Shown here one piece after another: positions 170 through 55,127 of a stretch of 64,000 bases of DNA (position 1 is the stretch's first letter; each line of letters starts with the position of its first letter). The DNA comes from a virus (Duplodnaviria > Heunggongvirae > Uroviricota > Caudoviricetes): IMG/VR virus record IMGVR_UViG_3300031994_000001, positions 279,799-343,798 of that record; one strand, 5' to 3'. The translations under genes and the position numbers were made by a program. Below the pieces are notes generated by a model. The model did no database searches, was not told the origin of the DNA, and saw nothing but the letters and a program-made list of their open reading frames with translations.

Positions 170-571
170 ATGCTTAACATACAACCTTTGACAAAACAAG
201 ACTTGACATCCAAATACTTGGATGTCAGTCTTGATTTTTTGACGGGCATTAGGGATAGTATCGTAAAGAAGTTCCAAAAATTCGAGCAGGAACATACCAC
301 AATGGAGGAAAGGTGTTGGGAAAACACATTCACCGTGGATTATGACAGAAAGGCGAAAGCAAATATTCTGACAATAAGGTATGTTACTTGGGATAATACG
401 GACAAAGAGGAATTTATCGAAAAACTGTCGCATTACTTCACTATGAATGTCGCCCATTTTTGGGATATACTTCCGAATGTTGTATTCAAGGTGAAGTCCA
501 AAAAAGAAGATTCCTACGACTTATACGCATACAAAATGATGAGGGGAAACCCAATATTGTTGAAGATATAA
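170..571 (+). CDS. Hypothetical protein starting with the LNIQP motif
   Basis: 133 aa ORF; N-terminus MLNIQPLTKQDL matches motif B shared with other ORFs. Confidence 0.75.
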   Translation: MLNIQPLTKQDLTSKYLDVSLDFLTGIRDSIVKKFQKFEQEHTTMEERCWENTFTVDYDRKAKANILTIRYVTWDNTDKEEFIEKLSHYFTMNVAHFWDILPNVVFKVKSKKEDSYDLYAYKMMRGNPILLKI

Positions 572-598
572 ATAATTGAAATTCTTAAACAAACACAA

Positions 599-853
599 AT
601 GAATTACGAAGAAATCAACGAAGAATTGTACAGTCAGTTGTCCGAGATAATCATTGATAACGGATATGAACTTGACATTAGTGAACTTGACTTCATTTCC
701 TTCGGTATGCCAGTCACAAGCGTAGGCATAGACGAAAACGGAAAACTCTACTTCTATTCAAACGAGACTATTGACGAGATACCCGTTGAAGTCCAACTTG
801 AATCCGATGATTACATTGAATTGGCAAACAAAATAATTGAATACTACGAATGA
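599..853 (+). CDS. Small acidic hypothetical protein
   Basis: 84 aa ORF downstream of TATAAATA at 567-574. Confidence 0.65.
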   Translation: MNYEEINEELYSQLSEIIIDNGYELDISELDFISFGMPVTSVGIDENGKLYFYSNETIDEIPVEVQLESDDYIELANKIIEYYE

Positions 854-1065
854 AAAGAGTGTTAAGATTTTTGAAATCCCTCATACGCTACATATTCACG
901 GGGCATTTCCAAAACGTGTCGTTTGACGAATACGCAAAGAGAATTGAGATATGTTCAAAGTGCGACAAAATCAACCAACACAACTATTCCTGCGGCGTAT
1001 GCGGATGCTATATGGACAAGAAAGCCAAATGGTCAACAGAGTGCTGCGAACTTGAAAAATGGTAG
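850..1065 (+). CDS. Small Cys-rich, probably Zn-binding phage protein
   Basis: RIEICxxC...CxxCGC...C...KW pattern; ATGA overlap with the upstream gene. Confidence 0.7.
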   Translation: MKRVLRFLKSLIRYIFTGHFQNVSFDEYAKRIEICSKCDKINQHNYSCGVCGCYMDKKAKWSTECCELEKW

Positions 1066-1103
1066 CACACCGCCCGTATAAATATATAGAACATTTTATC
1101 AAT

Positions 1104-3202: not shown

Positions 3203-3748
3203 CTATGACCCAAACAATGTGTCGTTTATAGTATTAATTACATTAAGAGTATTGTTGAGACTTATTGATGAAGTATCACTTGCGTACATTTTCATAGTCA
3301 TATTATCTTTGTCAATCATACAATCATAATTCATTGAAGCAGGCAATCTTTTGTCAAAACCCCAACTATAATATATTTTGTTGCCATCTACTGTCTTAAA
3401 CAAATCTTCGCCGTCATCCCCTATATTGTTAACGTGATTTTCAATGTATTTACAAACACTATCAGCATCAAGTTTTCCATCCACCTTTTTGAACATCATT
3501 TCTGGAACATCGTCTTGAATGTCTCTGCTTACGATTTCTTTATAAATCGCATTCGCTTCCATCACATATCCTTTATCTAAACAAATCATATAATATGCTT
3601 TAAGTTTTTCATCAGAACACGCTTTTACATTTTGCCTTCGCTGTCCTTTATGCCATTGCTCCATTTTGTTAATTTTTGTACTTTCATTTGAAGCACTTGA
3701 CATTTCATAAATTTTTGATATATATTGTTCCGAATTAAATATATCCAT
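3203..3748 (-). CDS. Hypothetical protein with a leader-like start (MDIFNSEQYISKIYE)
   Basis: ORF 3203-3823; ATG 3748 avoids overlap with the upstream gene; AT-rich codon usage. Confidence 0.6.
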   Translation of the reverse strand: MDIFNSEQYISKIYEMSSASNESTKINKMEQWHKGQRRQNVKACSDEKLKAYYMICLDKGYVMEANAIYKEIVSRDIQDDVPEMMFKKVDGKLDADSVCKYIENHVNNIGDDGEDLFKTVDGNKIYYSWGFDKRLPASMNYDCMIDKDNMTMKMYASDTSSISLNNTLNVINTINDTLFGS

Positions 3749-3753: not shown

Positions 3754-4344
3754 TTATATATCTTTCACAAAGCGCACGGAGAATCCGTTTTGCGCATTCA
3801 TTCTGACAAGTGGCATTTTCCAATATCCGTCATATATGATGTCAATGAAATACGATTCGTCAACCCTGCCTGCATCAATAATGTCGTCAATCAGTATGCA
3901 AGCCTCCTTACCTACACCAACAGTATCAACGGTGTAGTATGAAAAATAGCCGACCATTTTTGCATCGAAACCGAACTCGTTAGTACAGCCGTCATAGTCG
4001 GTTGAAACGAGTTTGCTTATATTGTCATAACCAACTGTATCGTACAAGTTGTCATAATCGCTCTTTGTCGGAATACGCCAACCGTTAGGCACGATTTTTC
4101 TCGCCCCTACGAGTGTGTAGTAAATTTCCTTGCCTTTCTTGAAATAATCAACATTAGGCTGCAAATAAGAACCGTTTGCCGCGTATAATGTTTTCACATT
4201 CTCGGCACACCATTCAAGGTTGCCGATAACAACACTTTTCATTTTCAAACCGTTTGCAGTGTTGTAAAGCCTTTCCTTTGTGATTGGCTTTATATCCAAT
4301 TTCTCATTGAATTGTTCTATACTTAATACTTTCATAGTTGTCAT
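3754..4344 (-). CDS. FISUMP (Fibrobacter succinogenes major paralogous) domain protein with the two-part leader
   Basis: IGNLEWCAENV, PNGWRIPT, GF..., FSVRFVKD motifs; N-terminus MKVLSIEQFNEKLDIKPITKERL. Confidence 0.75.
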   Translation of the reverse strand: MTTMKVLSIEQFNEKLDIKPITKERLYNTANGLKMKSVVIGNLEWCAENVKTLYAANGSYLQPNVDYFKKGKEIYYTLVGARKIVPNGWRIPTKSDYDNLYDTVGYDNISKLVSTDYDGCTNEFGFDAKMVGYFSYYTVDTVGVGKEACILIDDIIDAGRVDESYFIDIIYDGYWKMPLVRMNAQNGFSVRFVKDI

Positions 4345-4748
4345 AATTTTTGAAAATCAGAGGCATCAAACAAAATGTCTTCCATAACGAATGATTCGTG
4401 TCTTATTGCAAGCCCCAAGCACCTTAAAAACAAATAGTGACCGTCAGCATTGCCGATTGAATCCAAATATTTTATAGCCTCGTCCGCCGTATAGTATTTT
4501 CCACTCCTATCATAAGCAAAAACACAATGTTCATCCAACGCCATTTGGAACACTTCCATATCATCGTCATCGTAATTGCAAGACTCCTTCAAAAACGATT
4601 TGTCGTAATCATTCAGCGTATATTCCAACGCCATATTGGAACTTTGCTTTTCCGCAGCCGCTTTCGCAAATTCAGACAGCCTCGCTTTTGACACGGGTTG
4701 AATGTTCAGTTTCTCCGCAACGTATGTCTCATATCCGAGTATTTTCAT
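4341..4748 (-). CDS. Hypothetical protein with the two-part leader
   Basis: MKILGYETYVAEKLNIQPVSKARL; CATAAATA late-promoter variant at 4755-4762. Confidence 0.75.
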   Translation of the reverse strand: MKILGYETYVAEKLNIQPVSKARLSEFAKAAAEKQSSNMALEYTLNDYDKSFLKESCNYDDDDMEVFQMALDEHCVFAYDRSGKYYTADEAIKYLDSIGNADGHYLFLRCLGLAIRHESFVMEDILFDASDFQKL

Positions 4749-4787: not shown

Positions 4788-6194
4788 TTACTGTATCTTG
4801 TCGGTGACGAGATATGTGTTGTTCGGGTCTATGCTCACCATATTTCCGAGCAATGAAAGAAATGCGTTGCCGAGAACAATCTTCGTATCCTCGTCACGGT
4901 TCACCTTGACCTTGAACATAATGTTCTTATATGAGGCATCGTTGAAATCCAATCTTGCACTGATGAGGTAACTGCGGTTCATATCGGGTTCAAGCAATGT
5001 TCCTATCACGTTCCTTATGATAGTCTTATCGCCCACACAGAATGAAACCTTGTTGCCGTCCTCATTGTATGCTGCGGATTTGGTTGAAATGACATTGATG
5101 TCAGTGTTCATATCGAACATAATGTCGGTGTCGCAGTCAATATCGTCAAACACAAGTTTAGCCGATTCAACGCTACCGATTGTGGTCACGTTGTTGTTGA
5201 TATACTTAAACTTCTTTAAGAAGTCGAATATGTAGTTCACGGGGGAAACTTCCGAAACGGAAGAAATACCCTTAACACCTGGCGATGCGTTCACCTCAAT
5301 AATGTAGTTCTCGCCCGTGTTCTTGTCAACAATCATATCAACGCCGCACCAACGACATTTGACTGCGGCAGCGGTCTTGATTGCAAGTTCCTTCTGCTCG
5401 TCACTCAACTCGAACTTTTCGATAGTTCCACCGAGGCTGAAATTGGTTCTGAAGTCACCGTCAATCTTGTTACGGCGCATAACGCCGATAATCTCGAATG
5501 ATTCAGTGTTGTTTGAAATCCTGCTGTATGACTTGTTGAACACGTGGATACGGAGGTCGTAATCGGATTCGATTTTGTTTTGCAACAGAATCTCCGCATT
5601 CGGAACGAGTTTGAATATGGTTTCGAGTGTTGACTTCAGACTCATATAGGAATCTATGATGAACACGCCTATACCTTTCTTTCCGTCAAGAAGTTTGCAC
5701 ACCACAGGAAAGTTGCCGCCAATAAATTTCACCTTCTTTTCAAGTCTGTCAATGTCGTCAGCAGTCACAACTGTTGTGGCGGGTGTCGGGATATTCTCCG
5801 CAGACAGCACTTTGTATGTCGTGTACTTGTTCTCACAGTTCTCGTAACTGTCAAGGCTGTTTATGACGAAGAAACCTCTGTTCTCGAACTCCTTTAAGAA
5901 GTTCTTTGTGCGTGAGTTTTTGAGAATGGTAAGACGCGGCAGGATAATTGTGTTGTTCGTGCTGATTGCCACGGATTTGTCTGTGTCGTTGAGAATGTAG
6001 TTTTTCTCGTCCTTTCTCTCCAACGAAGCCGTCTCTGGGTTCGCATACAAGAACGTAATCCCGTATTCCGCACACTTCTCTTTCAACATTTTACAGAATG
6101 TTGAGTTGGTTATTGAACTCAAATAAAGCAACTGAACGGTGTCAATTTTTTTGGACTCCGTTATCAAACTATATGTTTGTGATAAAGTTTTCAT
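4788..6194 (-). CDS. rimK: RimK-family ATP-grasp glutamate ligase with a degenerate C-terminal retropepsin-like domain
   Basis: FPVVCK..GKKGIGV, DLRIHV, MRR..DFRTNFSLGG, GVDMI and IEVNASPG motifs. Confidence 0.85.
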   Translation of the reverse strand: MKTLSQTYSLITESKKIDTVQLLYLSSITNSTFCKMLKEKCAEYGITFLYANPETASLERKDEKNYILNDTDKSVAISTNNTIILPRLTILKNSRTKNFLKEFENRGFFVINSLDSYENCENKYTTYKVLSAENIPTPATTVVTADDIDRLEKKVKFIGGNFPVVCKLLDGKKGIGVFIIDSYMSLKSTLETIFKLVPNAEILLQNKIESDYDLRIHVFNKSYSRISNNTESFEIIGVMRRNKIDGDFRTNFSLGGTIEKFELSDEQKELAIKTAAAVKCRWCGVDMIVDKNTGENYIIEVNASPGVKGISSVSEVSPVNYIFDFLKKFKYINNNVTTIGSVESAKLVFDDIDCDTDIMFDMNTDINVISTKSAAYNEDGNKVSFCVGDKTIIRNVIGTLLEPDMNRSYLISARLDFNDASYKNIMFKVKVNRDEDTKIVLGNAFLSLLGNMVSIDPNNTYLVTDKIQ

Positions 6195-11117: not shown

Positions 11118-13061
11118 TTAGAAACCTCTCATACCTTTCTTTGTGCGACCCAAAACGCTTGAAATATGGTCTTCCTGCGCCTTGATGTCTTGATTCCAAG
11201 TCTTTGCGGAATCGGTGTCAACTCTTTCAACAACCAAGGTTGCTTCGCGGAGGTCGCGAGTAGCCCAGAAGTGATTGATTTCGTTTGTGGTCTTGAGGTT
11301 GTAGAATTTAGCCTCGTTAAGAATTTCCTCTTTTCTCTTGTCGGAAAGAGCAGCCCATTTTTCCTTGCAGATTTCTGGCATATTCTCAACAATGTCAAGT
11401 CCTTTCTTTGACTCATAGACATTCTTCCAAACCATATTGGCTTGTGCCTCGTTCTTGACATTGGCTAACTTCATAGCCTCGGCAATCATATCTTGTGTCT
11501 CGCTTGGCAGAGTGTTGAACTCGTTTTGACGGTTCTCTGAAAGGAGAGACAAGAAATTGTTTTCGGGAATCTGCTCCTCTTGTTTCTTAATGAGGGCATC
11601 AAGTTTCTCGGTGATTGCTGACTTGTAAGCATCGTTGGAGACATTCTTCTCAACAACGGAAGCAGCCTTGCCGCCGTTGTTCTGCTTGCTGCCTGCACCT
11701 GCACCTGCATTCTCGAACAGTTGTTCGGTCTTGTTGGTGTTGACTTCGAGTTGTTCAGCGAGATAGTCGTTGTGAGCGAAGTTTTGGTTCAGTTTTTCAG
11801 CCAAGTAGTCATTATGGTCGAAATTCTTTTGCAGTTGCTCTGCAAGGTAGTCATTGTGTTCGAAGTTCTGTTGGAGTTTTTCAGCCAAGTAATCGTTATG
11901 GTCGAAATTCTTTTGCAGTTGTTCAGCAAGGTAATCATTGTATTTTGAAATGACTGACATTTTCTCTGCCAAGTAATCATTATGAGCGAAGTTCTGCTCA
12001 AGTTTCTCGGCGAGATAATCGTTATGCTTGTAATTCTCTTCGAGTTTTTCTGCGAGATAATCGCTGTGGTCGGCAGTCTTTTGTAACTGCTCTGCGAGAT
12101 AATCGCTGTGCTTGATGGTCTTATCAACCTGCTCTGCGATGTACTCGCTGTAATTGATAGCGTTTTCAACGTGTTCAGCGAGATAGTCACTATGGTCGGC
12201 GGTCTTTTGCAACTGCTCTGCGAGGTAATCGCTATGGTCGGCAGTCTTTTGAATTTGACCAGCAAGATAATTCATATAGGCTTTCATATTGCCAATCTCT
12301 GACAAATCGAAACCTTGTGCCGCACCCTCATTGACACCGCCGAGACGGGTTTCAATGTTAGTGATGGTTTTTTTCATACCTTCAAGAATACCCGCGATAT
12401 ACTCGGTGTACTTTTGAAAATCGGCAACATTGACATTTTGCTTTTCATTTACATTTACTGTATCCATATTGTCTTTAGTATTTTTTTCTTTATTTGTTGA
12501 ATCGTATTCAAAAATGTAAACATTGTCATCATCTCCAAAGCCATAAGCCTCGTTCACGCGCCTCAATTCAGCGTTCTCGAAGCCTGGGTCTGCAACCAAG
12601 TCATAGGTAAACAGTTTTTCCAAGGTCACTTGACCCGTATTCGGGTTGATTTGACCTGCCGCACGGGAAGAGATGTGCAACGGAATACCATCACGAACAA
12701 GGGCTTGGGCTTGTTTGCCTGCGTCCGTGTTGAGAAGGCGTATCTTACCGATGATACGGTTGTTCTCCTTGTCGTATTCGAGTTTTTCTATAACGTGTGA
12801 AGCGTTCTTCAAAGAAACATCGAAATTTGTCGGATGGTCAAGTTCGCCGAGAAGTGTGTGGTTCTGCACTTTCGGCAACAGTTCATTCATCTTCGGGATG
12901 AAGTCAGAAGCCTCATAGATACGCCCGTTGCGGTTTCTTACCTTAAACTCCGTAAAGATACCTTCAAGGTAGATGCTGTCGCTTGCTGATGGGTTTTCAT
13001 TTTCGCAAATCCTCACCTCGCCCGCACGCTCTATGATAAGAAGTTTTTTATTTGATTCCAT
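11118..13061 (-). CDS. gp21: Prohead protease (T4 gp21-like) fused to a scaffold or core domain
   Basis: NRNGRIY, GELDHP, ISSRAAG and TYDLVADPGF motifs, followed by 14-aa repeats; late promoters upstream. Confidence 0.9.
   Translation of the reverse strand: MESNKKLLIIERAGEVRICENENPSASDSIYLEGIFTEFKVRNRNGRIYEASDFIPKMNELLPKVQNHTLLGELDHPTNFDVSLKNASHVIEKLEYDKENNRIIGKIRLLNTDAGKQAQALVRDGIPLHISSRAAGQINPNTGQVTLEKLFTYDLVADPGFENAELRRVNEAYGFGDDDNVYIFEYDSTNKEKNTKDNMDTVNVNEKQNVNVADFQKYTEYIAGILEGMKKTITNIETRLGGVNEGAAQGFDLSEIGNMKAYMNYLAGQIQKTADHSDYLAEQLQKTADHSDYLAEHVENAINYSEYIAEQVDKTIKHSDYLAEQLQKTADHSDYLAEKLEENYKHNDYLAEKLEQNFAHNDYLAEKMSVISKYNDYLAEQLQKNFDHNDYLAEKLQQNFEHNDYLAEQLQKNFDHNDYLAEKLNQNFAHNDYLAEQLEVNTNKTEQLFENAGAGAGSKQNNGGKAASVVEKNVSNDAYKSAITEKLDALIKKQEEQIPENNFLSLLSENRQNEFNTLPSETQDMIAEAMKLANVKNEAQANMVWKNVYESKKGLDIVENMPEICKEKWAALSDKRKEEILNEAKFYNLKTTNEINHFWATRDLREATLVVERVDTDSAKTWNQDIKAQEDHISSVLGRTKKGMRGF
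11746..12249 (-). repeat. About 12 tandem 42-bp coding repeats (HNDYLAEKLQQNF-type)
   Basis: Visible in both DNA and translation; in-frame with no spacers. Confidence 0.9.
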
Positions 13062-21318: not shown

Positions 21319-21861
21319 ATGAAAATCCTATCATTCGATGAGTTCAAGTCAATAAACGAATCAATCACCCTCAAAGCAATAGAAGAGGGTATGGTTGTCG
21401 TGTACTCCAAGAACGGCAAGGAGACCAACTACCAATATTGGATTTGCCTCACGGACAAAGAAAACATAAAGAAATATGTGGATTCCTTGAAATGGAACAA
21501 CGACATAACCGATGCCGACAGAAAGAGAATGAAAGGTATGTCGAAAATACTCGTTGCCCACTACAACGGAAGTTGCGACTACATAGAAATTGATGATGTT
21601 CTCATAAACAACATATCCTACATCTACAATCCGAAACTCAAACCGAAGGATATGCTTGACAAAAACACGCTCAAAGACCTGCGTGACGAATGTTCGGACA
21701 AGAATCTTGTTTACTCGAAAGACGTTGACTTGAAGAATATGGTGTTGAGCAAACCCGATGTTCCGTTTATGAACTACGGTCTGCGGCTAAACGACTATAT
21801 GGGCGTTTCAAGAGGCGAGATGACCTACGACTTGGGCGGCGTTTACGGAGTAAGATATTAA
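21319..21861 (+). CDS. Hypothetical protein with a capsid-targeting-like leader
   Basis: N-terminus MKILSFDEFKSINE/S. Confidence 0.7.
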   Translation: MKILSFDEFKSINESITLKAIEEGMVVVYSKNGKETNYQYWICLTDKENIKKYVDSLKWNNDITDADRKRMKGMSKILVAHYNGSCDYIEIDDVLINNISYIYNPKLKPKDMLDKNTLKDLRDECSDKNLVYSKDVDLKNMVLSKPDVPFMNYGLRLNDYMGVSRGEMTYDLGGVYGVRY

Positions 21862-22229: not shown

Positions 22230-22727
22230 TTATTTGACTTCACCCTTGAAGTCCTCCCATTTCAAATCGGAAGGCTTGAACACGTCCTGCCCGTATTTGA
22301 TTATCTTGTTTCCGTTCTCACCGATTGAGATGACATTCAAAGACATTTTGGAACTCTTGTCCTTATTAGCCTTGAATATACTCTCAAAAAACGGAGCAGC
22401 CTTTTCTTTTAAGTCATAATTGTTGAACGGAGTAACTGACTTATACTCGAAGCGAAGATTCAGATAATCGGATGCTTTCTCGTCATATACAAATGGCTCA
22501 AAATTGTCAAGGGCTGTTTTTGTAAGACTTTTAAGATAGTTCTCAATATCCTTTCCGAGTTTTTTTGTCAGATTCTCGGCGGATTTGTAATCGCCGTTAA
22601 GTTTGAACTTCATATAATCGGATTCAAGCCCAGGGCTGATAAAGATGTTCATAACAGTCTTTATGCTTTTGTCAAGTGCCTCGTTCACGGGATTGCCTTC
22701 AAACTCGTTAAATTTCAAAATGTTCAT
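22230..22727 (-). CDS. Hypothetical protein with a capsid-targeting-like leader
   Basis: MNILKFNEFEGNPVNE/A; late promoter at 22742-22749 supports this start. Confidence 0.7.
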   Translation of the reverse strand: MNILKFNEFEGNPVNEALDKSIKTVMNIFISPGLESDYMKFKLNGDYKSAENLTKKLGKDIENYLKSLTKTALDNFEPFVYDEKASDYLNLRFEYKSVTPFNNYDLKEKAAPFFESIFKANKDKSSKMSLNVISIGENGNKIIKYGQDVFKPSDLKWEDFKGEVK

Positions 22728-22752: not shown

Positions 22753-23286
22753 TTAGTCGTTATTCTCACCATTGAAAAAGGCGAATACCTCTTGTATCTG
22801 CTCATCACCCCAATTCTTTATGAATCCCTTTGAATCAATAGTAATGGCAAAATAATCACCATATCCGTTTTCGTCAATCTGAAGGAATTTAGGAACATAC
22901 TCGTACTTTTTAGTTTCAACAACCTTGTTACCTTTCAAAAGTGAATATACACCGCTGTCAACAACCTTGAAGTAAATCTCAACGGGTCTGTCATCCCAAC
23001 CCTTTATACATCCTTGTTTAATATCCAAGTCCCAAACAATTTCGGAATCACCGCCTTTGAACACGTCAACCGTCTTGCCAAATATGTATTCATTGGTCTC
23101 AAAAAGCGATTGTGATTCCTCACCTTCAAACTTGCACATATACGAACCCGAAGAAATTTCTATACGAACAGTGTCTCCGCTTTTGTCGCGCATATTCATT
23201 TGTTCAAGTCGTTCCTTTGTAACGGGCTGTATGTTAAGTCTCTCGTTACATTCTTCCATTTCGTCAATTCTCTTAATGTGTGTCAT
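22753..23286 (-). CDS. Hypothetical protein with the two-part leader
   Basis: N-terminus MTHIKRIDEMEECNERLNIQPVTKERL. Confidence 0.75.
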   Translation of the reverse strand: MTHIKRIDEMEECNERLNIQPVTKERLEQMNMRDKSGDTVRIEISSGSYMCKFEGEESQSLFETNEYIFGKTVDVFKGGDSEIVWDLDIKQGCIKGWDDRPVEIYFKVVDSGVYSLLKGNKVVETKKYEYVPKFLQIDENGYGDYFAITIDSKGFIKNWGDEQIQEVFAFFNGENND

Positions 23287-35700: not shown

Positions 35701-36201
35701 CAGAACAGAGGTGTAATCAGCGGTAACAATGTTGTTGGCGTTGAGTCAACACTCGTAAGAGACAACCGCGATTGGTTAGAACCTGCGGGTATCAACTCAA
35801 TCATCTACCAAAACGGCGTTGGCTGCGTAATCTACGCTAACAAGACTGCAAAGCAAACTCCGAAGTCCGCTTTGAGCGAAATCAACTGCCGTGAGGCTTG
35901 TATCTACATCCAAGACGGTGTTGAAAAGATACTCCGTAACTACTTGTTCGAAGTGAACAACGCACAAACAAGACTTGAAATCAAGACTTTGGTTGACAAC
36001 TTCATTGATATGGTGAAGAACAACGGCGGCGTTTACGACTTCAAGACCGTTATGGATAAATCAAACAACACCAACGAGGTCATTGACCACAATATGGGTG
36101 TGATTGACATCTTCATCGAACCTGCCCGCGCAATGGACATCCTCGTTCAAAAACTCACAATTTTGAGAACGGGTGTTATCGAAAGCGGTACGTTTGAATA
36201 A
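32749..36201 (+). CDS. gp18: Contractile tail sheath protein with a large central insertion
   Basis: SAGTYRFERD, GFSKVGPFNTP, YYPY..VPPA, AG..RG, INSI, KSALS.IN.R, FE.N and DIFIEP sheath motifs. Confidence 0.92.
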   Translation: MALSTELYGLKSAGTYRFERDQSVTMDTATPLENVRMLVGFSKVGPFNTPVFIQNTREFINTFGDIDRTLEKRGSYFHRSCLAALSAGPIYALNLLKLTDEDKVDAMRFSTSVASEAQDENPQAEGNLFDYRGMYNIENFYTPSEESFLYTIGRKNYYEENSTNCILNFTNIGKSPVSVIVTRANEYNSTNFKVTAQEWYGKGNVPEYLHETSYMSDYMVDVYVLAGNWGGDFNDEEGHPYRRFASDIKFGKYFDKDKGFIRRKNADDTTDTMLTQFLNEPDVKLIGKYTGSLIPGLVDKNGRNIYIEYMINSDTATNGLMCSVNEQIFDGDVKLDGARYGIDMVGHSLYDAIQNENYSNVRFLSYSGNVSGKLEDDILGGASLSLGTGTDAPYSLTIDTNIPKDLELASNATPRNGAAVDEFRGGIAVINTKEGNGTIRKYVYYYMEKIGEDADHNPTYEYVEPSASATNTEDEQRDAAAYETIFAQVAKNDKVYMEYNNNFWPITNITKTTLNGVTDNSAIPQEVANIINGNAAQQTDKFFNNIDTETRIAHPIVKYVITLKADANHQLSDSSDISNDGGSYLISEDFNGGFIFNGNPLPNFVFLEGSNVYANRKNLSTHDKIDKDGGIDIDWYDNIHPITTVNGTEIANAAYAPDYVAAYLTEGEEDAQQQITNFSFNDNKVTVLLGAGHYEMTITVKRSVYGIEAKENEFFIPAESNDESYDYVKIGNFILSKDGDNHRLTRIAEITGVSDPESGIVTWRKVACQDKVVLNNFFLDSTDNTEWCSTECFCDITEYFTHYNVFTLGGFTLKKSHMPDGTNERQHEILDLLAEDSKDSNLFNALIDRELIQFRYLVDTFGFGIEESCKDQYTKLCKERKSAFAIINAPSSNDFKISENPSFIDKNKSVSAEFIAKGGDPDKNPTFLFSLPDVAHGATWGAYYYPYLKVYSNYTTINVPPAAYVSNLYVAKYETGQPWNAVAGQNRGVISGNNVVGVESTLVRDNRDWLEPAGINSIIYQNGVGCVIYANKTAKQTPKSALSEINCREACIYIQDGVEKILRNYLFEVNNAQTRLEIKTLVDNFIDMVKNNGGVYDFKTVMDKSNNTNEVIDHNMGVIDIFIEPARAMDILVQKLTILRTGVIESGTFE

Positions 36202-36278: not shown

Positions 36279-36776
36279 ATGAAAATATATTCAATAGACG
36301 AATTTGTAAACGAGAAATTGGATATACAACCAATCTCGAAAAAGAGACTGCAAGACCTGCAAATAGAAAGCCTGCCTGGGTGGAGCGACCACAAACTCAA
36401 GCAAGAGGCTATGAAGTGGGCGGAAGAATCCGCGCAATGGCTTGTTGACAACAAGGAAAATGGCGGATGCTGCTTCTTCAAACTCGGCGCGTCAAAATGC
36501 AAGACGGGTGAAATGTATATCGTTATGGGTTGGAGCGGCGGCTTTGACGAAGACGACACGCAGAACCCCTATGCCGATGGCGAATACAGAATCTGTACCA
36601 AACTCGCGTACAATGAAAGTTCAATGCAAAGCGACTATGAGTTTGATTGGGAAATGCCATACGATGAGAACACGGGTGACGTTGACGACACCGACACGGA
36701 GTACAGCGAACCCAATGATGTCTTGTGGCAGATAGAGCATTGGCAGGAACTTTACAAAGAAAACGATGACGAATAG
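36279..36776 (+). CDS. Acidic hypothetical protein with the two-part leader
   Basis: MKIYSIDEFVNEKLDIQPISKKRL; late promoter at 36254. Confidence 0.75.
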   Translation: MKIYSIDEFVNEKLDIQPISKKRLQDLQIESLPGWSDHKLKQEAMKWAEESAQWLVDNKENGGCCFFKLGASKCKTGEMYIVMGWSGGFDEDDTQNPYADGEYRICTKLAYNESSMQSDYEFDWEMPYDENTGDVDDTDTEYSEPNDVLWQIEHWQELYKENDDE

Positions 36777-43800: not shown

Positions 43801-44676
43801 ATGGAAATAATGCGTTCAAACGAGTTAAACGAAAAACTTAACATTCAGCCAAGGTCAAAGTCGGACATTGGCAAATGCTTGGATAGGGCTAAAAAGGATG
43901 CCTACGCCAAACAGAAGTTCATAGAAGATAACCGTCTCGTTTATAACAAAAAAGAGAATGTCTATGACTGTCACGGCGATGTCACCGTAGAAGAAGAGCA
44001 TTTGACACAAAACGGCATTATTCCAGTGAAACTCGGACAGGTTCTCGGCAATTTTTTCTGTTACAATACATCCATCAAATCTCTGACAAATTCCCCTGCA
44101 AGGGTAAACGGCGGATTCAACTGTCACGAATGTAAAAATCTGAAATCGCTGAAAGGCGCACCCATATATGTAGGCAAGGATTTCGACTGCGTTAAATGCG
44201 AAAACCTCGAATCACTCGAAGGCGCACCCGAATATGTCGGTCTCGCATTTATGTGCCACAGTTGCACAAGTCTGAAAAACCTTATAGGCGCACCCGAATA
44301 TGTTGGCGGAACATTCACTTGCGGCGGTTGCACAAATCTTGAAACTCTTGAAGGCGCACCGAAAAAAGTCGGCGGCGATTTCGCCTGCCACGAATGCGGA
44401 AAATTAACATCGCTCAAAGGCGCACCAGAATATGTCGGCAAAGACTTGTTCGTAAGGGACTGTAAAAATCTCGAAACACTTGAAGGCGCACCCGAATATG
44501 TCTCCGAAACATTTTACTGCCTATTCTGCAAAAAACTCACAATAGATACCGAACACTTCTATTCAAAAATGCCTAAACACATAAAAGACATTCGCATAAA
44601 GGGCATAGGGTTCGGCAGATTTGTCACAAGAATAGCCAAAAGGTATTCACAGTTTAACAGTGTGTACGAGCGTTAA
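43801..44676 (+). CDS. LRR-like protein (LxSLEGAPxYVG repeats of about 23 aa) with the two-part leader
   Basis: About 7 repeats; N-terminus MEIMRSNELNEKLNIQPRSK. Confidence 0.8.
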   Translation: MEIMRSNELNEKLNIQPRSKSDIGKCLDRAKKDAYAKQKFIEDNRLVYNKKENVYDCHGDVTVEEEHLTQNGIIPVKLGQVLGNFFCYNTSIKSLTNSPARVNGGFNCHECKNLKSLKGAPIYVGKDFDCVKCENLESLEGAPEYVGLAFMCHSCTSLKNLIGAPEYVGGTFTCGGCTNLETLEGAPKKVGGDFACHECGKLTSLKGAPEYVGKDLFVRDCKNLETLEGAPEYVSETFYCLFCKKLTIDTEHFYSKMPKHIKDIRIKGIGFGRFVTRIAKRYSQFNSVYER

Positions 44677-44704: not shown

Positions 44705-45331
44705 ATGAAAATATTACTCACCGAACAATATTCGGAACTTATAACCGAAATGGCGGCTATCAAAAAAGTCGCGCAGGAAATTGACGACTTCTTTGAAATG
44801 CTTAAAGCACACAAAAACACATTCGCCTACGTATATACGGCTAACACTATGGACGGCAAACTCAAAAAGAAATTCGTGAACGCCGAGGGATTGACTGTTG
44901 AAAACCCTATGCTTGGCAAACTGTTCAAGGTCACTACATACAAGTTCAACTTCGGTCGCACATACAGAGAGGCTGTCAACAGAAAGAACCCCCAATGGCA
45001 GGTTCAGAACAGACGCGAGTGGAATGCCAAACTGCAAGGGTTCAGAATGACGGAGTTCAACGAGAAAGGTGACTTGTTCTTCACTATTGCCGACTTCACA
45101 TCAAAAACAAGGTATTTTATGCTTGACGACAACAGCATTCCGTATGAAGTGACAATGAACGATATTGACGGGTATTTGAAACCATCGTCAAAAACAACAA
45201 AAGTGAGCGGGTCTGGCGTTAATTTCCGCAAATTAAATGTGAATAAAATATACCGTTTCAACGCGGGTGGTAAAACTTGGAACAACAAGATTTTCCTCTA
45301 TCCGATTCTTGACCCAATTTTACGGAAATAA
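44705..45331 (+). CDS. Basic hypothetical protein with a leader
   Basis: MKILLTEQYSELITE/M; late promoter at 44679. Confidence 0.7.
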   Translation: MKILLTEQYSELITEMAAIKKVAQEIDDFFEMLKAHKNTFAYVYTANTMDGKLKKKFVNAEGLTVENPMLGKLFKVTTYKFNFGRTYREAVNRKNPQWQVQNRREWNAKLQGFRMTEFNEKGDLFFTIADFTSKTRYFMLDDNSIPYEVTMNDIDGYLKPSSKTTKVSGSGVNFRKLNVNKIYRFNAGGKTWNNKIFLYPILDPILRK

Positions 45332-46093: not shown

Positions 46094-47101
46094 ATGGAAA
46101 TACTCAAATCAGAACAATACATAAACGAGAAACTGAACATCAAGCCCGTCACGAAAGATAGGATTGATAGCATATATGCTGAAATGTATAAAGACCTTGC
46201 TAAAAAATACAACCTTGTTTGGAACAAAAGTACAAAAAGGTTTGACTGTGACGGTGACGTGGAAATTGATGCAGACGATATTGTTGACGGAAAATTACCT
46301 TTGCCATTCGGCGTAATAAAAGGCAACTTCTACTGTTCTGGACGCACTGACAAAAAAGTATTCGATGACCCACTTGCATACACGGGCAAAGAACTTACAA
46401 CACTCGAAAACGCGCCAACAGAAGTTGGAAAAACATTTGATTGTTCATATAATAAACTGACAACACTTGAAGGCGCACCAAAGAAAGTTGGTATGGATTT
46501 TTATTGCCCATATAATTTACTAACATCTCTTAAAGGTTCTTCAGAATATGTCGGACACGATTTTAGTTGCTATGGGAATAAACTGACAACACTTGAAGGC
46601 GCACCAAAGAAAGTAGAATACAGTTTTTATTGTAGTAATAACAAACTAACATCGCTAAAAGGCGCACCTCAAAGATTAAAAGTTGATTTTGATTGCAGTC
46701 ACAACAATCTGACAACACTCGAAGGCGCACCGTCAAAAATAGGATGTATGGAAGATTGCACATTTGATTGCAGTTATAACCAACTAACATCACTTGAACA
46801 CGCACCTTGGGGCGGTAATGGTGGAATAAGATATTTTATTTGTGACAACAACAAATTAACAACACTCGAAGGAGCGTGTAATTACATAGAACGTGATTTC
46901 AGTTGCAAAAACAATGAACTCAAATCCCTTGAAGGCGCACCACAAACAGTTGGAAGAAATTTTGATTGTTCAAATAACAACCTAAAAACACTTGACATAC
47001 ATCCCGAAATTGTTGAAGGCTCATTCACTTGTAAAAACAACAAAGATTTAGTGTTGCCGAAAAGAAAACCGAGATGGATAAAAGACAAATTTATAAAATA
47101 A
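46094..47101 (+). CDS. LRR-like protein (22-aa NKLTTLEGAP repeats) with the two-part leader
   Basis: About 9 repeats; N-terminus MEILKSEQYINEKLNIKPVTKDRI. Confidence 0.8.
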   Translation: MEILKSEQYINEKLNIKPVTKDRIDSIYAEMYKDLAKKYNLVWNKSTKRFDCDGDVEIDADDIVDGKLPLPFGVIKGNFYCSGRTDKKVFDDPLAYTGKELTTLENAPTEVGKTFDCSYNKLTTLEGAPKKVGMDFYCPYNLLTSLKGSSEYVGHDFSCYGNKLTTLEGAPKKVEYSFYCSNNKLTSLKGAPQRLKVDFDCSHNNLTTLEGAPSKIGCMEDCTFDCSYNQLTSLEHAPWGGNGGIRYFICDNNKLTTLEGACNYIERDFSCKNNELKSLEGAPQTVGRNFDCSNNNLKTLDIHPEIVEGSFTCKNNKDLVLPKRKPRWIKDKFIK

Positions 47102-47104: not shown

Positions 47105-47515
47105 ATGGAAATACAAAAATCTGACAGATACATAAACGAGAAAATCGGCATACAACCCGTCACAAAAGACCGACTTTCAACAAATATGGAATCAATTTCG
47201 CAGAATTATTCCATAATGGTTTGGCTTGACTTCGAAGAGGTCAAAAAGAAATTCCACGAAATCGTGGAAAAAGACAACGAGTTGTTGATACAGTCGGAAT
47301 TGGCGGGGAACAGCGTAAACAATTTCTATTCTTTCTTGGTAATCTGCCAAGAAATCAAAGACAAACTCGGTGCTGAAATAAAACTCGAACATTCAACCTA
47401 TGCGGACACCCCCGTAGGAACGATGTATATGAACAATGAGGAAATCGGCTCTTTTGTCATATCGAACAACAGCGATGTGAAACGACTACTCAAATCAACA
47501 AATATGTCAGTATAA
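47105..47515 (+). CDS. Hypothetical protein with the two-part leader
   Basis: N-terminus MEIQKSDRYINEKIGIQPVTKDRL. Confidence 0.75.
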   Translation: MEIQKSDRYINEKIGIQPVTKDRLSTNMESISQNYSIMVWLDFEEVKKKFHEIVEKDNELLIQSELAGNSVNNFYSFLVICQEIKDKLGAEIKLEHSTYADTPVGTMYMNNEEIGSFVISNNSDVKRLLKSTNMSV

Positions 47516-47550: not shown

Positions 47551-48006
47551 TTACCAATGTTGGTAGATTATATCAAATCCACCGTCCTTTCTCTGCGTCA
47601 CGCCGATAGCCCGATTCATAATGTCGGCTGAACCGTCACTTCGATTATACCAAGCGTCAAGATACATTTCGGGATTGCCGTCATCATTGTTCTCGAACTT
47701 GCCTTTCTTGAACCCGCTAACTATGTCATTCCACAAATTTCTGATATCGCTTTCGCTTTTAGGCAAGTTGTATATTTCATTGTTCCACGGAAAACGCAAG
47801 TCCAAATTTTCCATTTTCCTGCGCTCACCCCTGCTGTTACCGCCATCAATGTCATCTTCCAAATCAGCAAGCAATTCTTCAAGGTTTTTCTTGAACGTCA
47901 TATATGGTATGTCGTCTTTCAGACTTTCCAACCTATCCTTGCCTATCGGTTGAATACCAAGCCTCTCGCAAACACCGAACTCCGAAAATTTCTTTATACG
48001 AACCAT
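47551..48006 (-). CDS. Hypothetical protein with the two-part leader
   Basis: MVRIKKFSEFGVCERLGIQPIGKDRL; late promoter at 48023. Confidence 0.75.
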   Translation of the reverse strand: MVRIKKFSEFGVCERLGIQPIGKDRLESLKDDIPYMTFKKNLEELLADLEDDIDGGNSRGERRKMENLDLRFPWNNEIYNLPKSESDIRNLWNDIVSGFKKGKFENNDDGNPEMYLDAWYNRSDGSADIMNRAIGVTQRKDGGFDIIYQHW

Positions 48007-48137: not shown

Positions 48138-48878
48138 TTATATATAAACATTCTGACTTACCACATCGGGATTCATAGACGGGTTGGGCGGCTCACTCTC
48201 CATACCATTAACCATATGCGTATGCTTGTTGAAATACTTTAAGAATGTGTCGCCTTTAAGCAGACCCTCAACAGCGTCCTGCCCAAGTTTAACACAAGGG
48301 GCGTTTATCTTTATCTCCTTATCGGAGTTTATCGTTATGTCGCCGTTCTTCAACGAAACGCTGTCACCGTTTGAGTTATACATAGTGATTTCACCCTCTG
48401 GTGTAAGGTTGAATGTGGCTGAACCGTATGCGTTCTTGAAGTCTATGACGAATCCTTTTTCCTCCGTGAAAAAAACCTTTATGTACTCGCCCTTTCTGAA
48501 ATTGTCGGCATCATTTGCAAGGTTGGTGTCATATATGAGAACGTGAGCATTGGGATAGTAGTCCGTGCCTATCTCGGCAGAAACCTCATCCGACACATAC
48601 ATATTGCCGCCCCATTCGGGAGTGTTGATAGTGCCGCCGACCTTTACGATAGAACCTATCTTCGGAACGGAGAAACTGCCCGCGCCGCTCGAACTTCCGC
48701 TCTGCGGCAGGCAGGTAGGCATAGCCCACGGAAGCATCTCCGCAGGAATCACATAAGAACCGTCAGCGTTCTTTTGGTCGGTAACGCCGAATATTCTGAC
48801 GCGCACCCTTCCCTTGAATGTGGGGTCGTAATTGTCTTCTACTCTTCCTATCATATTGTTTGGCTTCTCATTATCCAA
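48138..48878 (-). CDS. gp5: Baseplate hub/central spike protein (gp5/gpV-like)
   Basis: GRVEDNYDP..GRVRVRIFG, LPWA and FSVPKIG OB fold; terminal HTH metal-binding motif. Confidence 0.85.
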   Translation of the reverse strand: MDNEKPNNMIGRVEDNYDPTFKGRVRVRIFGVTDQKNADGSYVIPAEMLPWAMPTCLPQSGSSSGAGSFSVPKIGSIVKVGGTINTPEWGGNMYVSDEVSAEIGTDYYPNAHVLIYDTNLANDADNFRKGEYIKVFFTEEKGFVIDFKNAYGSATFNLTPEGEITMYNSNGDSVSLKNGDITINSDKEIKINAPCVKLGQDAVEGLLKGDTFLKYFNKHTHMVNGMESEPPNPSMNPDVVSQNVYI

Positions 48879-49488: not shown

Positions 49489-50160
49489 TTATTGATTTTG
49501 CTTGTTTTTGAGGTATTCGTTATATGTTAAAAGACCTTCACGCCACTTGTTCTTGCAGGCGGCGTACTCGCTCCTTGCGGAATCCCGCAGATTTCTGCCG
49601 TGCCTTTTCGACAACACCGTGCCGTCCTTTGCTATGACGGTATTGCCGTCTTCCGTGACGGTGCATCCATTGGAAGCGACAAACGGTTTTACGGAATCGA
49701 ATTTGTCGTGTTCCTTTCTATACTGTTCAACATACTTGTTGTATTCTTTCAGACTGTCATCAAGTTCCTTTCTTTCCCTCTCCATTTTTTCATTGTAGGA
49801 TTCGATATAGTCCTCGAACAACTGCTGAACGCCAAGTATGTTGTTCTTACGGAAAAGTGCTTTTATTTCATTCGACTTATCCTCCCAACAGTATCGGCAG
49901 GCATCGTCCAAAAAGGAATAGAACGGCGTTTTGTTACCGAACTTCGATGTATGATGCCATTCGTTATTTGTCACATAACCGAGTGTAATCAGCAAATTCA
50001 AAACACTGTCGCTTATGCCATAATTGCTCTTGAACTCTGTTTTCGGAAACCTGCCGTTGTCTTTCGCCTTTGCCGCACGGACGCTAATAGAGTAACCTAT
50101 GTAACCCGAATTTCCGCCAAATGATTCCGATACAAACTCGTTGAAAGATAGCATATTCAT
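49489..50160 (-). CDS. Hypothetical protein (EWHHTSK motif) with a leader
   Basis: MNMLSFNEFVSE/S; late promoter at 50171. Confidence 0.7.
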   Translation of the reverse strand: MNMLSFNEFVSESFGGNSGYIGYSISVRAAKAKDNGRFPKTEFKSNYGISDSVLNLLITLGYVTNNEWHHTSKFGNKTPFYSFLDDACRYCWEDKSNEIKALFRKNNILGVQQLFEDYIESYNEKMERERKELDDSLKEYNKYVEQYRKEHDKFDSVKPFVASNGCTVTEDGNTVIAKDGTVLSKRHGRNLRDSARSEYAACKNKWREGLLTYNEYLKNKQNQ

Positions 50161-52626: not shown

Positions 52627-52955
52627 TACCTTTTCTTTTGTTCTTCAAGTTTTTGCAACTCGGCATCAATCTGCTTTTCACGCTCCAAGTCGAAACGCTT
52701 TCTGTCGGTTGACTGAATCATACGCTTCTCGCTTTTCAAGCCTTCAATGCGCAGGTCGGTGTCGGTTATCTGATATTTGTTTATACTGTCAATTCGGTCG
52801 TTGATTACCGCAATCTGCTCGGTCTGACGCTTGTCAAACTTTTTAATCTTCTTGTTGGTTGAGCAAGTTTTCAGCATAACGACAGCCATAAGGCACATAA
52901 TGATTATGATGCCGTATTTGTTCAGAAAGTCAAGTATCTTTTTCATAGTATTCAA
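52626..52955 (-). CDS. Small membrane-anchored protein
   Basis: N-terminal hydrophobic helix followed by KTCS and a coiled coil. Confidence 0.65.
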   Translation of the reverse strand: MNTMKKILDFLNKYGIIIIMCLMAVVMLKTCSTNKKIKKFDKRQTEQIAVINDRIDSINKYQITDTDLRIEGLKSEKRMIQSTDRKRFDLEREKQIDAELQKLEEQKKR

Positions 52956-53843
52956 TTAAAATTGTTCGTTGTCAAGCGGAATGTAGGAGTTGATTTTCTC
53001 ACGGAGTGTGACTTCCTTGATTTCCTTTCCGTCTTTGTCATACACTTTGACCTTTTCTTTCATAAGGTCTTCATAGTCGCGGTAGTCCTTACCCGCTTCC
53101 TTGCACTTGATAGCGCAGAAGTCAGAAACATACTTTCCGCCGTTTGGCGAAGACATTTGTTTGGCATCACCCGTGTAGGTACTGCCGAAGTAAATCCAAA
53201 CATCGCCGCCGACAATATCGTGACCCTTTCCGTATTTGAGAATTCCGAGCATTTGTTCGGCGCAACCCTTGTGGGTCTTTTCAAGGATTTTGTCGGCTAC
53301 CTTACGGCTGCGCATTTGGTTCTGTTTCTTCGCGGTGTCGAAGTTGTTGAGAACCCAAACGAGGTGGATGTTGTTAATGTCGTATCCGCCTATACCCGCA
53401 AGAACGGCAATATCTTCGAGTTTAGGATAACTCTTGAGGGTGACATCGAACATAACATTCTGTTTGTCCTTTCTTGTTGACTGCTGTCTGAACAGAGTGT
53501 TGTTCACTTTCTTGGCAAGTCTGTTGGTGTCGGAAAACTCGTGGAGGTTTGAAACGTCAGTCGGATTGGTCATATCAACCTCACCGAGAAACTTTCCATA
53601 TTTCTCCTTGTATTGCTTGCTCAACGGCTCGTCATCTTTCATCTTGACAAGTGTTTCCTTGATGTCGTCAACATTGAGAACCTTGCAGTCAATGCCGAGT
53701 ACGTTATTGGCAACGAATCCCTTCCCGCTGCCGCCACCACCGCAGAGAATGACAATCTGCCCGCTCTTCGGATAAGCCTTCTTGTTGAATGTTATGAGTT
53801 TTTCATTGATTTGTGAAAACTCGTTGTAAAGCATTATTTTCAT
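52956..53843 (-). CDS. P-loop kinase (zeta-toxin/AAA_33-like) with a leader
   Basis: GGGGSGKG, LNVDD, MFDVT and NQMRSRKV motifs; N-terminus MKIMLYNEFSQINE/K. Confidence 0.75.
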   Translation of the reverse strand: MKIMLYNEFSQINEKLITFNKKAYPKSGQIVILCGGGGSGKGFVANNVLGIDCKVLNVDDIKETLVKMKDDEPLSKQYKEKYGKFLGEVDMTNPTDVSNLHEFSDTNRLAKKVNNTLFRQQSTRKDKQNVMFDVTLKSYPKLEDIAVLAGIGGYDINNIHLVWVLNNFDTAKKQNQMRSRKVADKILEKTHKGCAEQMLGILKYGKGHDIVGGDVWIYFGSTYTGDAKQMSSPNGGKYVSDFCAIKCKEAGKDYRDYEDLMKEKVKVYDKDGKEIKEVTLREKINSYIPLDNEQF

Positions 53844-54148
53844 TTCAGTTCATTTATTTTTTCCATAATCTGTTGTTCGGTTTGGAGACCCGCAGCAATA
53901 CCCATAACCTCGCCGTCTTTGAAATAAACAAGCAACGGTATGTTGCGCACACCGAATTTTTCCGCGAGTTCCTTGTTGTCCTCAATGTCGCATTTCGCTA
54001 TTTTGAACTCATTGTGTTCCTCTGATATTTTGTCAAGGGTTTTACCCAACACCCTGCAAGGGGAACACCATTCGGCGTAAAAGTCAACAATCGCAATACC
54101 ATCAGCGATGGTTTCGGGTAAATTTTCTTCGTTTACTGTTGTAATCAT
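53840..54148 (-). CDS. trxA: Thioredoxin
   Basis: DFYAEWCSPC and IP..FKDG motifs. Confidence 0.92.
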   Translation of the reverse strand: MITTVNEENLPETIADGIAIVDFYAEWCSPCRVLGKTLDKISEEHNEFKIAKCDIEDNKELAEKFGVRNIPLLVYFKDGEVMGIAAGLQTEQQIMEKINELK

Positions 54149-54166
54149 ATCAATATGTTTTAGTTG

Positions 54167-54622
54167 TTATATTTTTCCAAAATAGATTTTTTCCAACTGT
54201 TTGTCATCCAAATCAAAATCCTCTTTTACACGGGCAATGTAATCTTCAATTACCGTTTCATATTTCGGGTCACTTTTGTAATACACAAACGCCTCCCAAA
54301 GCGTAGCGAACACCTTGACTTTCGTGAGTTTCTGTTTCGAACGGGTCTTGTGCTTTTTCAATTGTTCAGCCATAGACAATTTATCCCACGAGTCAAACCT
54401 CTTGCTTGTGTCATCGCAAGCCTTTGTGAAATTAAGCCAGCACTCCTTTGAAAAACCGAGTTTCATTATATTGAAGACCACCTGCTCCTCACCGACAGTC
54501 CTTTTTCCCGTCCAAAAATGTTTTTTACCCAAAACATCGCCCATCTTGTTAAGCCTATCCTTGGACACGGGCTGTATGTTCAGTTTCTCCGAAACAAATC
54601 CTCTGTATGATAACACTTTCAT
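54167..54622 (-). CDS. Hypothetical protein with the two-part leader; paralog of the next gene
   Basis: MKVLSYRGFVSEKLNIQPVSKDRL; late promoter at 54641. Confidence 0.75.
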   Translation of the reverse strand: MKVLSYRGFVSEKLNIQPVSKDRLNKMGDVLGKKHFWTGKRTVGEEQVVFNIMKLGFSKECWLNFTKACDDTSKRFDSWDKLSMAEQLKKHKTRSKQKLTKVKVFATLWEAFVYYKSDPKYETVIEDYIARVKEDFDLDDKQLEKIYFGKI

Positions 54623-54653
54623 AATTTCCGTTATTTGTTATATTTATATCGGA

Positions 54654-55127
54654 TTAGAACGGGAGTTTGAAGAAAATCTGTATTATTTTCTCGAATGTCA
54701 TAAACTTCACGTCTGTCATAAGACGCTTCACATACCAAAATATGACAGACTTGTAATCATCGTCATTCCCATACATTTTGAAAGCCGCCCAAAGAGAAGT
54801 GTACAATTCGGTCTCGGTCATATTTTTGTTGACGCGAACGGCGTGTTTATTCAGTTGGATGCGAAGTGGAAGCGAATGCCATTTCTTGAACAACGCCAAC
54901 ACTTCGTCAGATGTTTTCTTCATTTTCTCGCTGTTCCAAGCGATGAAACTGTTAGTCCACATATTCCTTCCGAGTTGGTCAAGGTCAACCAACACATCAA
55001 TCGGGTAGTTGTAACCAAACAACTTGTTTTTCATATCGGAAAGCCGTTCAACAGTCCGTTTCAACCTATCCGCAGTAACGGGCTGTATGTTCAGTTTTTT
55101 CTTCTGTTCATTGGGATTTGCCTGCAT
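54654..55127 (-). CDS. Hypothetical protein with motif B only; paralog of 54167-54622
   Basis: KLNIQPVTADRL; SLWAAF..Y.....YKSVI is similar to TLWEAF..Y.....YETVI. Confidence 0.7.
   Translation of the reverse strand: MQANPNEQKKKLNIQPVTADRLKRTVERLSDMKNKLFGYNYPIDVLVDLDQLGRNMWTNSFIAWNSEKMKKTSDEVLALFKKWHSLPLRIQLNKHAVRVNKNMTETELYTSLWAAFKMYGNDDDYKSVIFWYVKRLMTDVKFMTFEKIIQIFFKLPF

Follow-up and report, generated by a model that had tools for sequence, protein, structure and literature searches.

The 64,000-nucleotide stretch of DNA from an uncultured giant phage analysed here (the window; bases 8864-72863 of G000, a 144,158-base IMG/VR virus record with a CheckV completeness of 48%) encodes many small proteins, unrelated to one another, that begin with the same tag. 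This tag of 24 residues, which recurs on dozens of such proteins, is most likely a mark for loading into the phage head, composed of a leader with a cut site that resembles the capsid-targeting sequence (CTS) of phage T4 (motif A), followed directly by an undescribed 12-residue block (motif B). The initial annotation of the window had defined motif A as M[K/E]I-x(4-9)-[I/V/L/F/C]-x-E and motif B as [K/R]L[N/D/G]I[Q/K]P[V/I][T/S]KxR[L/I]. The consensus obtained here is M-[KRE]-I-L-[KD]-[ST]-x-x-Y-I-[NS]-E / K-L-x-I-[KQ]-P-[VI]-[TS]-K-x-R-L, with the slash at the predicted cut, and the leader is exactly 12 residues long in 68 of the 89 genes that carry both parts (A+B genes).

Occurrence of the tag

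The translations at the nine starts for which both motifs had been annotated (4344-, 4748-, 23286-, 36279+, 43801+, 46094+, 47105+, 48006- and 54622-, the sign giving the strand), and at the two starts said to have motif B alone (170+ and 55127-), are as described. Searching for motif B with a six-frame regular expression, and with a hidden Markov model (HMM) of the motif and the four residues upstream of it, recovers precisely these 11 within the window, and 23 copies over the complete record. Scores of true copies start at 19 bits, except for a truncated copy at position 170 (11.8 bits), while the best noise remains below 7 bits, and a reversed pattern gives no matches compared with ten for the forward pattern. 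The recurrence of the tag is not producible by chance. Twenty of the 23 copies are N-terminal, and the other three are internal, in two open reading frames (ORFs) that carry three and two copies.

A profile built from the nine window tags has 26 matches in G000 and 96, 26 and 19 in three other IMG/VR contigs. In a separate scan of G001, the 192-kilobase (kb) relative among these contigs, 92 copies were found, comprising 71 A+B genes, seven with motif B alone and 14 internal copies. When a 70-sequence profile was run against 1.84 billion representative proteins, at least 214 clusters were matched (E ≤ 0.001), nearly all at residues 1-30 and many in proteins with two to four copies; even the weakest of the listed matches are canonical tags, and the only name borne by members of these clusters is 'hypothetical protein'. 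Within IMG/VR, a strict degenerate DNA pattern retrieves one contig only and a peptide-pattern search three. A word-indexed protein search with residues 1-40 produced no match. The tag was not found in four deposited huge phages or in Lak-A1. A full-text literature search returned no paper describing it, and the Jug-phage paper is silent on N-terminal motifs.

Conservation of the tag as a peptide

The invariant Leu, Pro and Arg of the tag are encoded by six, four and six synonymous codons, respectively, and the nucleotide identity among tags on cargo of different families has a median of 67% and a maximum of 86%. This implies that conservation acts on the peptide, rather than on a DNA element or through recent gene conversion, and speaks against a recombination or regulatory cassette operating at the DNA level. 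The tag is hydrophilic by inspection and lacks Cys, so that neither a signal peptide nor the signal of a lipoprotein fits.

An AlphaFold model of a 165-residue tagged protein, based on an alignment of 18 family members, leaves the tag mostly unstructured, with a per-residue confidence (pLDDT) of 55-66 across residues 1-40, whereas the cargo from residue 40 onwards is mostly modelled at 84-95, with two short dips. The tag would therefore appear, from this model, to lie outside the cargo fold. Two further ideas, that motif B supplies a strand integral to the cargo and that it serves in donor-strand polymerisation, can be discarded, since the folds of the cargoes bear no relation to one another and the model shows the tag detached and with low confidence.

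The putative cut site and the prohead protease

The residue preceding motif B (P1) is Glu in 87 of the 89 N-terminal copies and 15 of the 17 internal copies, and one of I, V and L occupies P3 in 80 of the 89 N-terminal copies; among the 17 internal copies, 15 have V, I, L or M at this position. Pooling G000 and G001, [VIL]xE precedes motif B in 99 of the 104 copies having at least 11 upstream residues, and in only one of the 11 having ten or fewer. The putative cut site is thus retained only where an upstream peptide exists for removal. The motif (L/I)-x-E is that of the T4 protease gp21, and prohead proteases of the T4 and phiKZ-like types all cut after Glu (PMC5694885).

The gp21 homologue reported by the initial annotation is indeed encoded in the window, with an N-terminal Peptidase_S77 domain:

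11118..13061, - strand: prohead protease, 647 amino acids (aa), behind TATAAATA; phrog_207, E = 6.8e-34; PF03420, E = 1.4e-12

Its His (in ELDHP) and Ser (in ISSR) align to those of T4 gp21 (PDB 5JBL), and judging from the sequences this S77 protease is the probable enzyme for cutting the tags after Glu. Its closest deposited relatives are in uncultured huge phages of 462-735 kb (LR756500-LR756504 and LR745206; 32-38% identity), with those of the Prevotella Lak phages being more distant. The C-terminal ~500 aa (11118-12460) have only sub-threshold Pfam matches, some to coiled-coil types (DUF7603, Med10, BORCS7), and this extension is possibly a fused scaffold.

Twelve ORFs contain two to four units. 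At their internal junctions the MKIL...Y part of motif A has been lost while [VIL]xE and motif B are kept, and as there is no nearby Met these copies are not separate genes; nor are the ORFs artefacts of assembly, since several independent contigs carry the same multi-unit proteins.

Genes with motif B alone begin M-L-x-I-x-P, such that the Met falls exactly at the predicted P1' position, and this arrangement has at least two independent origins. One is a lineage of BspA-type paralogues, which are 39-58% identical overall and near-identical in motif B. The other is the gene at 170, where the former tag (...EDFINEK / LNIQP) is split in frame: an 18-nucleotide (nt) stretch (YNR-stop-T-M) within positions 125-187 breaks it between P1' and P2'. 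The two fragments, and the second motif B gene that lacks motif A, are:

125..169, + strand: motif A remnant MSSEDFINEK, closing the 564-aa ORF upstream and in frame with the gene at 170
170..571, + strand: gene with motif B alone, 133 aa; Met in place of the P1' Lys, MLNIQPLTKQDL
54654..55127, - strand: motif B gene with an unrelated 10-residue leader lacking a cut site, MQANPNEQKK / KLNIQPVTADRL

As the [VIL]xE site lies directly before motif B, cleavage there would make motif B the mature N-terminus, with which the M-L-x-I-x-P starts are consistent.

Similar sites are also present in the major capsid protein of the gp23 family in G001 (G001:42367-44169), which has INE/S, IKE/S and LNE/S within its first 52 residues; a propeptide is lost from the corresponding N-terminal region of T4 gp23 (PMC5694885). 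Tagged genes flank this capsid gene on both sides.

Outside the window, a Lon-like ATP-dependent protease (phrog_4871) is encoded at 107811-109808 in window coordinates. At about 113700-114813 (- strand, window coordinates) in G000, the N-terminus of an ORF reads HLMEH, an HxxEH motif of the kind typical of M16 processing peptidases, although this assignment is a reading of the sequence only.

Motif B

The proposal that motif B falls outside described domains is borne out in Pfam, PHROGs and the sequences of the PDB: residues 1-30 of ten tagged proteins hit no family in Pfam or PHROGs, and the tag profile has no significant match in the PDB (best E = 0.33). The motif is always found at, or within ten residues of, a primary N-terminus or a predicted mature one. 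It is present in every unit of the multi-unit proteins, and persists where both motif A and the cut site are absent. These patterns of persistence and position imply that motif B is wanted on each mature unit. At the predicted cleavage sites of the capsid protein, Ser follows the cut and motif B is absent; this, together with its retention in genes without a cut site, argues that the protease does not need motif B and that the motif is not simply an element of the primed side of the site.

The residues of motif B alternate through the hydrophobic positions L, I, P and V, before ending in K-x-R-L. The motif is most likely a flexible, cargo-independent peptide that binds one common partner, either inside the head or on the exit route.

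A related block occurs in a 259-aa protein of G000 (80911-81690 in window coordinates, - strand), which combines a short leader with a motif B-like sequence (MESVS / KLKISPVTKARL) and belongs to a tagged family of five members. Its gene is directly upstream of a 673-aa late gene lacking an assigned function, and the protein could be a component of the head or core.

Motif A without motif B

The initial annotation listed 13 genes with motif A alone. Their starts were scored with a profile of motif A built from the set defined by motif B, for which internal Met peptides served as the control (4 of 977 reach 6 bits). Five are supported:

3203..3748, - strand: 16.1 bits; MDIFNSEQYISKIYE / M
44705..45331, + strand: 10.6 bits; behind TATAAATA
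21319..21861, + strand: 9.3 bits; MKILSFDEFKSINE / S
22230..22727, - strand: 9.0 bits; behind TATAAATA
49489..50160, - strand: 6.6 bits, borderline; behind TATAAATA

The remaining eight (1356+, 6194-, 22211-, 29399-, 38374-, 38925-, 41899+ and 53843-) score below 2.5 bits or fall outside the listed scores, and are indistinguishable from ordinary AT-rich N-termini of the MK(I/T) type. In G001, about four genes with motif A alone are supported by the profile (for example, MRILRSSQFIAE / GAGAG), compared with about 71 A+B genes. The suggestion that the two motifs are freely combinable modules is therefore not supported, as so few convincing cases of motif A alone imply that A and B are mostly one unit.

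The likeness of motif A to the T4 CTS, also proposed in the initial annotation, holds for the MK start and the C-terminal aromatic-I-x-E but extends no further. Against the motif A profile, the T4 sequence MKTYQEFIAE scores 4.9-7.6 bits, a weak match at positions 6-12 (YQEFIAE against SeeYINE); of the 977 control peptides, four reach 6 bits. A 407-aa protein of the 642-kb deposited huge phage LR756502.1 (316-1539 of the retrieved stretch, - strand) begins MNIKKYDDYISE / K, an A-like leader without motif B, and hence the leader may predate motif B.

Late promoters

The promoter consensus TATAAATA occurs at 46 sites in the 144 kb of G000, of which 37 have an ATG ORF within 50 nt downstream. Behind it lie genes for the protease, tail sheath and baseplate wedge, and many tagged genes. 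It is within 60 nt of 19 of the 89 A+B genes, and further A+B genes are located in same-strand runs. That this sequence stands ahead of tagged genes, as had been noted, is exact (at most 45 nt upstream) for three of the 11 genes bearing motif B and seven of the 13 assigned motif A alone in the window, but not for the rest. Genes without a promoter of their own are mostly found in a same-strand run that a tagged gene precedes. Judged from the promoter consensus, the tagged genes are probably expressed late, alongside virion genes.

Tagged genes and their cargo

The A+B genes of the window are:

4341..4748, - strand: 135 aa; tag MKILGYETYVAE / KLNIQPVSKARL; orphan cargo
3754..4344, - strand: 196 aa; FISUMP (Fib_succ_major) cargo, PF09603, E = 1.7e-12; the likely start is the Met of MKVLS at 4335
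22753..23286, - strand: 177 aa; longer leader, MTHIKRIDEMEECNE / RLNIQPVTKERL; orphan cargo
36279..36776, + strand: 165 aa; directly behind TATAAATA; orphan cargo
43801..44676, + strand: 291 aa; cargo clusters with the leucine-rich repeat (LRR) family
46094..47101, + strand: 335 aa; LRRs, LRR_4, E = 1.9e-8
47105..47515, + strand: 136 aa; orphan cargo
47551..48006, - strand: 151 aa; behind TATAAATA; orphan cargo
54167..54622, - strand: 151 aa; behind TATAAATA; weak, sub-threshold APOBEC-like match

By BLAST, the cargo of the 115 units in G000 and G001 groups into about 28 clusters. Repeats of the DUF285/BspA type are present in 12 of the 30 scanned members of the largest, and beyond these, the LRR, FISUMP and sub-threshold APOBEC-like matches and the 'KTGDIV' module, the cargo consists of orphans. 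This module, the commonest orphan cargo, comprises about 135 aa with the consensus ...PK..L.TGD.V... and is predicted to have a confident fold (mean pLDDT 81). No convincing relative of the fold was found with Foldseek (best E = 0.1, template modelling (TM) score at most 0.3) or in a VIA-align comparison with the PDB, where a cysteine peptidase and an NlpC/P60-like chain gave the highest Z score, 4.9. A search of the ESM Atlas with a 151-aa tagged protein gave no usable match.

The list of cargo originally given is accurate in respect of FISUMP and LRR domains. By contrast, no protease cargo was found, and the ligase (a RimK-type ATP-grasp enzyme) and kinase (sub-threshold AAA_33 and zeta-toxin matches) are encoded only by weak candidates for motif A alone. 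No enzyme could be found among the cargo with motif B, bar the one sub-threshold APOBEC-like match; these cargoes are binder modules and orphans. Best matches between G000 and G001 have a median identity of 37% for tagged proteins, with none reaching 70%, against a median of 61% for untagged proteins. On this comparison of sequences, the tagged proteins are evolving fast.

Genomic context

Apart from the tagged genes, the window encodes a tail sheath (32749-36201), a baseplate hub (48138-48878), an amidase endolysin and the head maturation protease, while the tail sheath stabiliser and baseplate wedge genes are elsewhere in G000. A blastn search of deposited phages with a 3.2-kb stretch returned no match. 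Two ATP-grasp enzymes are adjacent to, or begin in a similar way to, tagged genes: a TupA-like enzyme at 55140-55988 (E = 1.1e-40) adjoins the motif B gene at 55127, and a RimK-like enzyme at 4788-6194 (E = 7.1e-33) has a weakly A-like start. Between 14641 and 19198 there is a run of metabolic-looking ORFs, assigned from their N-terminal sequences only as isochorismatase/nicotinamidase-like, nicotinamide phosphoribosyltransferase-like and S-adenosylmethionine synthetase-like. This recalls the NAD+ modules reported for gut jumbo phages (PMC11662467).

Proposed function of the tag

On balance, and at somewhat better than an even chance, the tag combines a propeptide for T4-type prohead loading with a new N-terminal block, motif B, that is retained; loading and cleavage, and whatever motif B binds, we infer from the sequences. 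Tagged proteins would be made late, together with virion proteins, and the 12-residue leader (M-K/R/E-I-L-x-x-x-x-Y-I-N/S-E) would bring them into the prohead core in the manner of the T4 CTS. The gp21-family protease would then cleave after the Glu of [V/I/L]-x-E, and do likewise at each internal junction of the proteins with two to four units, leaving every mature unit to begin with KLxI[KQ]P[VI]TKxRL. Motif B may subsequently act as an address for docking, retention or ejection, comparable in principle to the cargo-loading peptide of encapsulins. The cargo itself would represent a large and quickly changing set of binders (BspA/DUF285, LRR, FISUMP lectin-like and orphan 'KTGDIV' modules) delivered with the DNA, plausibly as a pre-made arsenal for anti-defence or host takeover, like the internal proteins of the T-even phages.

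Several observations weigh against this reading. Motif A resembles the T4 CTS only weakly, at 4.9-7.6 bits and over the C-terminal half alone, and related huge phages with the same type of protease (LR7565xx, Lak-A1) do not have the A+B tag. Genes with motif B alone imply either that motif A is unneeded for loading or that their products are not loaded. To our knowledge, there is no precedent for some 80 different gene products being loaded into one head. Furthermore, the recognisable cargo domains (BspA/DUF285, LRR and FISUMP) belong to types usual in cell-surface adhesins and not in cytoplasmic effectors, which would suit display on the outside of the particle.

A more specific form of the loading hypothesis can be put forward only tentatively. 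Motif B could be a new, transferable N-terminal address that is exposed by the head protease and docks around 100 different binders, among them units freed from multi-unit proteins, to a single receptor within the head, forming a pre-loaded and fast-diversifying library of LRR, BspA and lectin-like binders for injection with the DNA against host defences. By analogy, and just as tentatively, such an arrangement might amount to an encapsulin-like cargo system grafted on to the T4 loading pathway.

The principal alternative, which we consider improbable, is that the tag is left uncut by the head protease and docks interchangeable binders on the virion exterior, whether on fibres, on whiskers or as capsid decoration, to give mosaic coats of adhesins. 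Phage fibres usually combine a conserved N-terminal anchor with a variable C-terminal binding part, and every Pfam-recognisable cargo attached to motif B is of the adhesin or binder type. The location of tagged genes among those for tail and baseplate proteins (such as the sheath and hub), as well as their late expression as judged from promoters, would also be expected. However, external display leaves unexplained the restriction of [VIL]xE to copies with an upstream peptide, the repetition of the cut site and motif B at all multi-unit junctions, and the resemblance of the leader to the T4 CTS. In addition, none of the annotated tail and baseplate proteins carries the tag, and many cargo modules are small orphans without adhesin features.

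Similarly unlikely to be correct is the proposal that motif B is itself the loading peptide, binding the capsid interior or core as in encapsulins, with motif A a disposable pro-sequence that masks it or times its action. This would account for diverged paralogues (39-58% identical) keeping a near-identical motif B without motif A, for the presence of motif B on all units of multi-unit proteins when only the first has motif A, and for A+B genes being far commoner than those with motif A alone. Yet high-scoring genes with motif A alone do exist behind late promoters, one huge phage related to these carries an A-like leader but no motif B, and internal units would need no loading signal of their own. 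Moreover, the T4 leader is sufficient by itself (PMC8442874).

That motif B is solely a recognition element on the primed side (P1'-P12') of a standard cleavage cassette, with no function after the cut, seems less probable again. Although the motif always directly follows the predicted scissile bond, all internal junctions included, it is also conserved in genes that start at P1' without a cut site, and Ser rather than motif B follows the predicted sites in the capsid propeptide. Finally, a tag unrelated to the virion, be it for intracellular sorting, for degradation (for example by the Lon-like protease encoded outside the window), for translation initiation or for the shuffling of cargo by DNA recombination, is very improbable even though AT-rich MKI-type starts are common in the genome, given the variety of synonymous codons, a nucleotide identity that does not exceed 86% when tags on unrelated cargo are compared, the inability of internal copies to serve as translation-start elements, and a hydrophilicity (by inspection) that speaks against a signal peptide.

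Comparison with known systems

The closest parallel to the proposed prohead-loading propeptide is in T4, where the CTS MKTYQEFIAE undergoes a single cleavage and loads whatever protein is fused to it (PMC8442874). The internal proteins of T-even phages are diverse anti-restriction proteins with the CTS as their only common part (PMC3012670). T4 IPI, IPII, IPIII and Alt share with the tagged proteins a short N-terminal leader with an MK start and an aromatic-I-x-E end, removed by gp21 in T4, and both systems feature a gp21-family (S77) protease, the late promoter TATAAATA and diverse, fast-evolving small proteins. By contrast, the T4 leader has ten residues rather than 12 and is only weakly similar, it is not followed by an invariant retained block of 12 residues, and it marks three to five genes, as opposed to tens to ~80 per genome here. 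Multi-unit proteins with repeated cut sites differ from the T4 arrangement too, as do cargoes of binder repeats in place of small basic proteins.

In the phiKZ-like giant phages (phiKZ, 201phi2-1 and SPN3US), an S80 protease processes ejection or inner-body proteins at (S/A/G)-x-E (PMC5694885). As here, there are many head-internal proteins in paralogous families with N-terminal propeptides cut after Glu, and paralogues may have identical N-termini, such as SPN3US gp53 and gp54 (PMC5694885). However, P3 is A, S or G in those phages and I, V or L here, the protease of the window matches S77 and not S80, and their propeptides are long and family-specific, unlike the one short, universal tag found across unrelated families; motif B also has no equivalent there.

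Encapsulin cargo-loading peptides, which offer a parallel to motif B alone, are likewise short, flexible and transferable, and direct unrelated cargo inside a shell of the HK97 fold, but they mostly sit at the C-terminus, have no link to proteolysis and differ in sequence. The Dar proteins of phage P1 are antirestriction proteins that are loaded into the head and ejected (PMC12810830, PMC9024508); they are few in number, have no shared universal tag, and involve another protease and other sequences. The scale of the system described here (as many as roughly one in three G001 genes), its multi-unit proteins and the retained motif B exceed what is described for T4 or phiKZ-like phages.

Implications

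Even if loading into the head proves to be the wrong interpretation, a 24-residue tag conserved over some 28 families of cargo that are unrelated to one another, and in no fewer than 214 clusters of proteins, demands an explanation. Should the interpretation be correct, as much as one third of the genes in this clade would encode proteins that travel in the particle and are delivered when a cell is infected, far above any studied phage, by means of a two-part, sequence-defined tag whose second part is without a described counterpart. The tag would then provide a simple sequence rule with which to list the injected proteome of uncultured giant phages, and a sizeable natural collection of putative anti-defence binders with LRR, BspA and lectin-like scaffolds. 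It would also constitute a compact cassette, consisting of a leader, a cut site and a retained address, as a candidate for the programmable loading of proteins into T4-like capsids.

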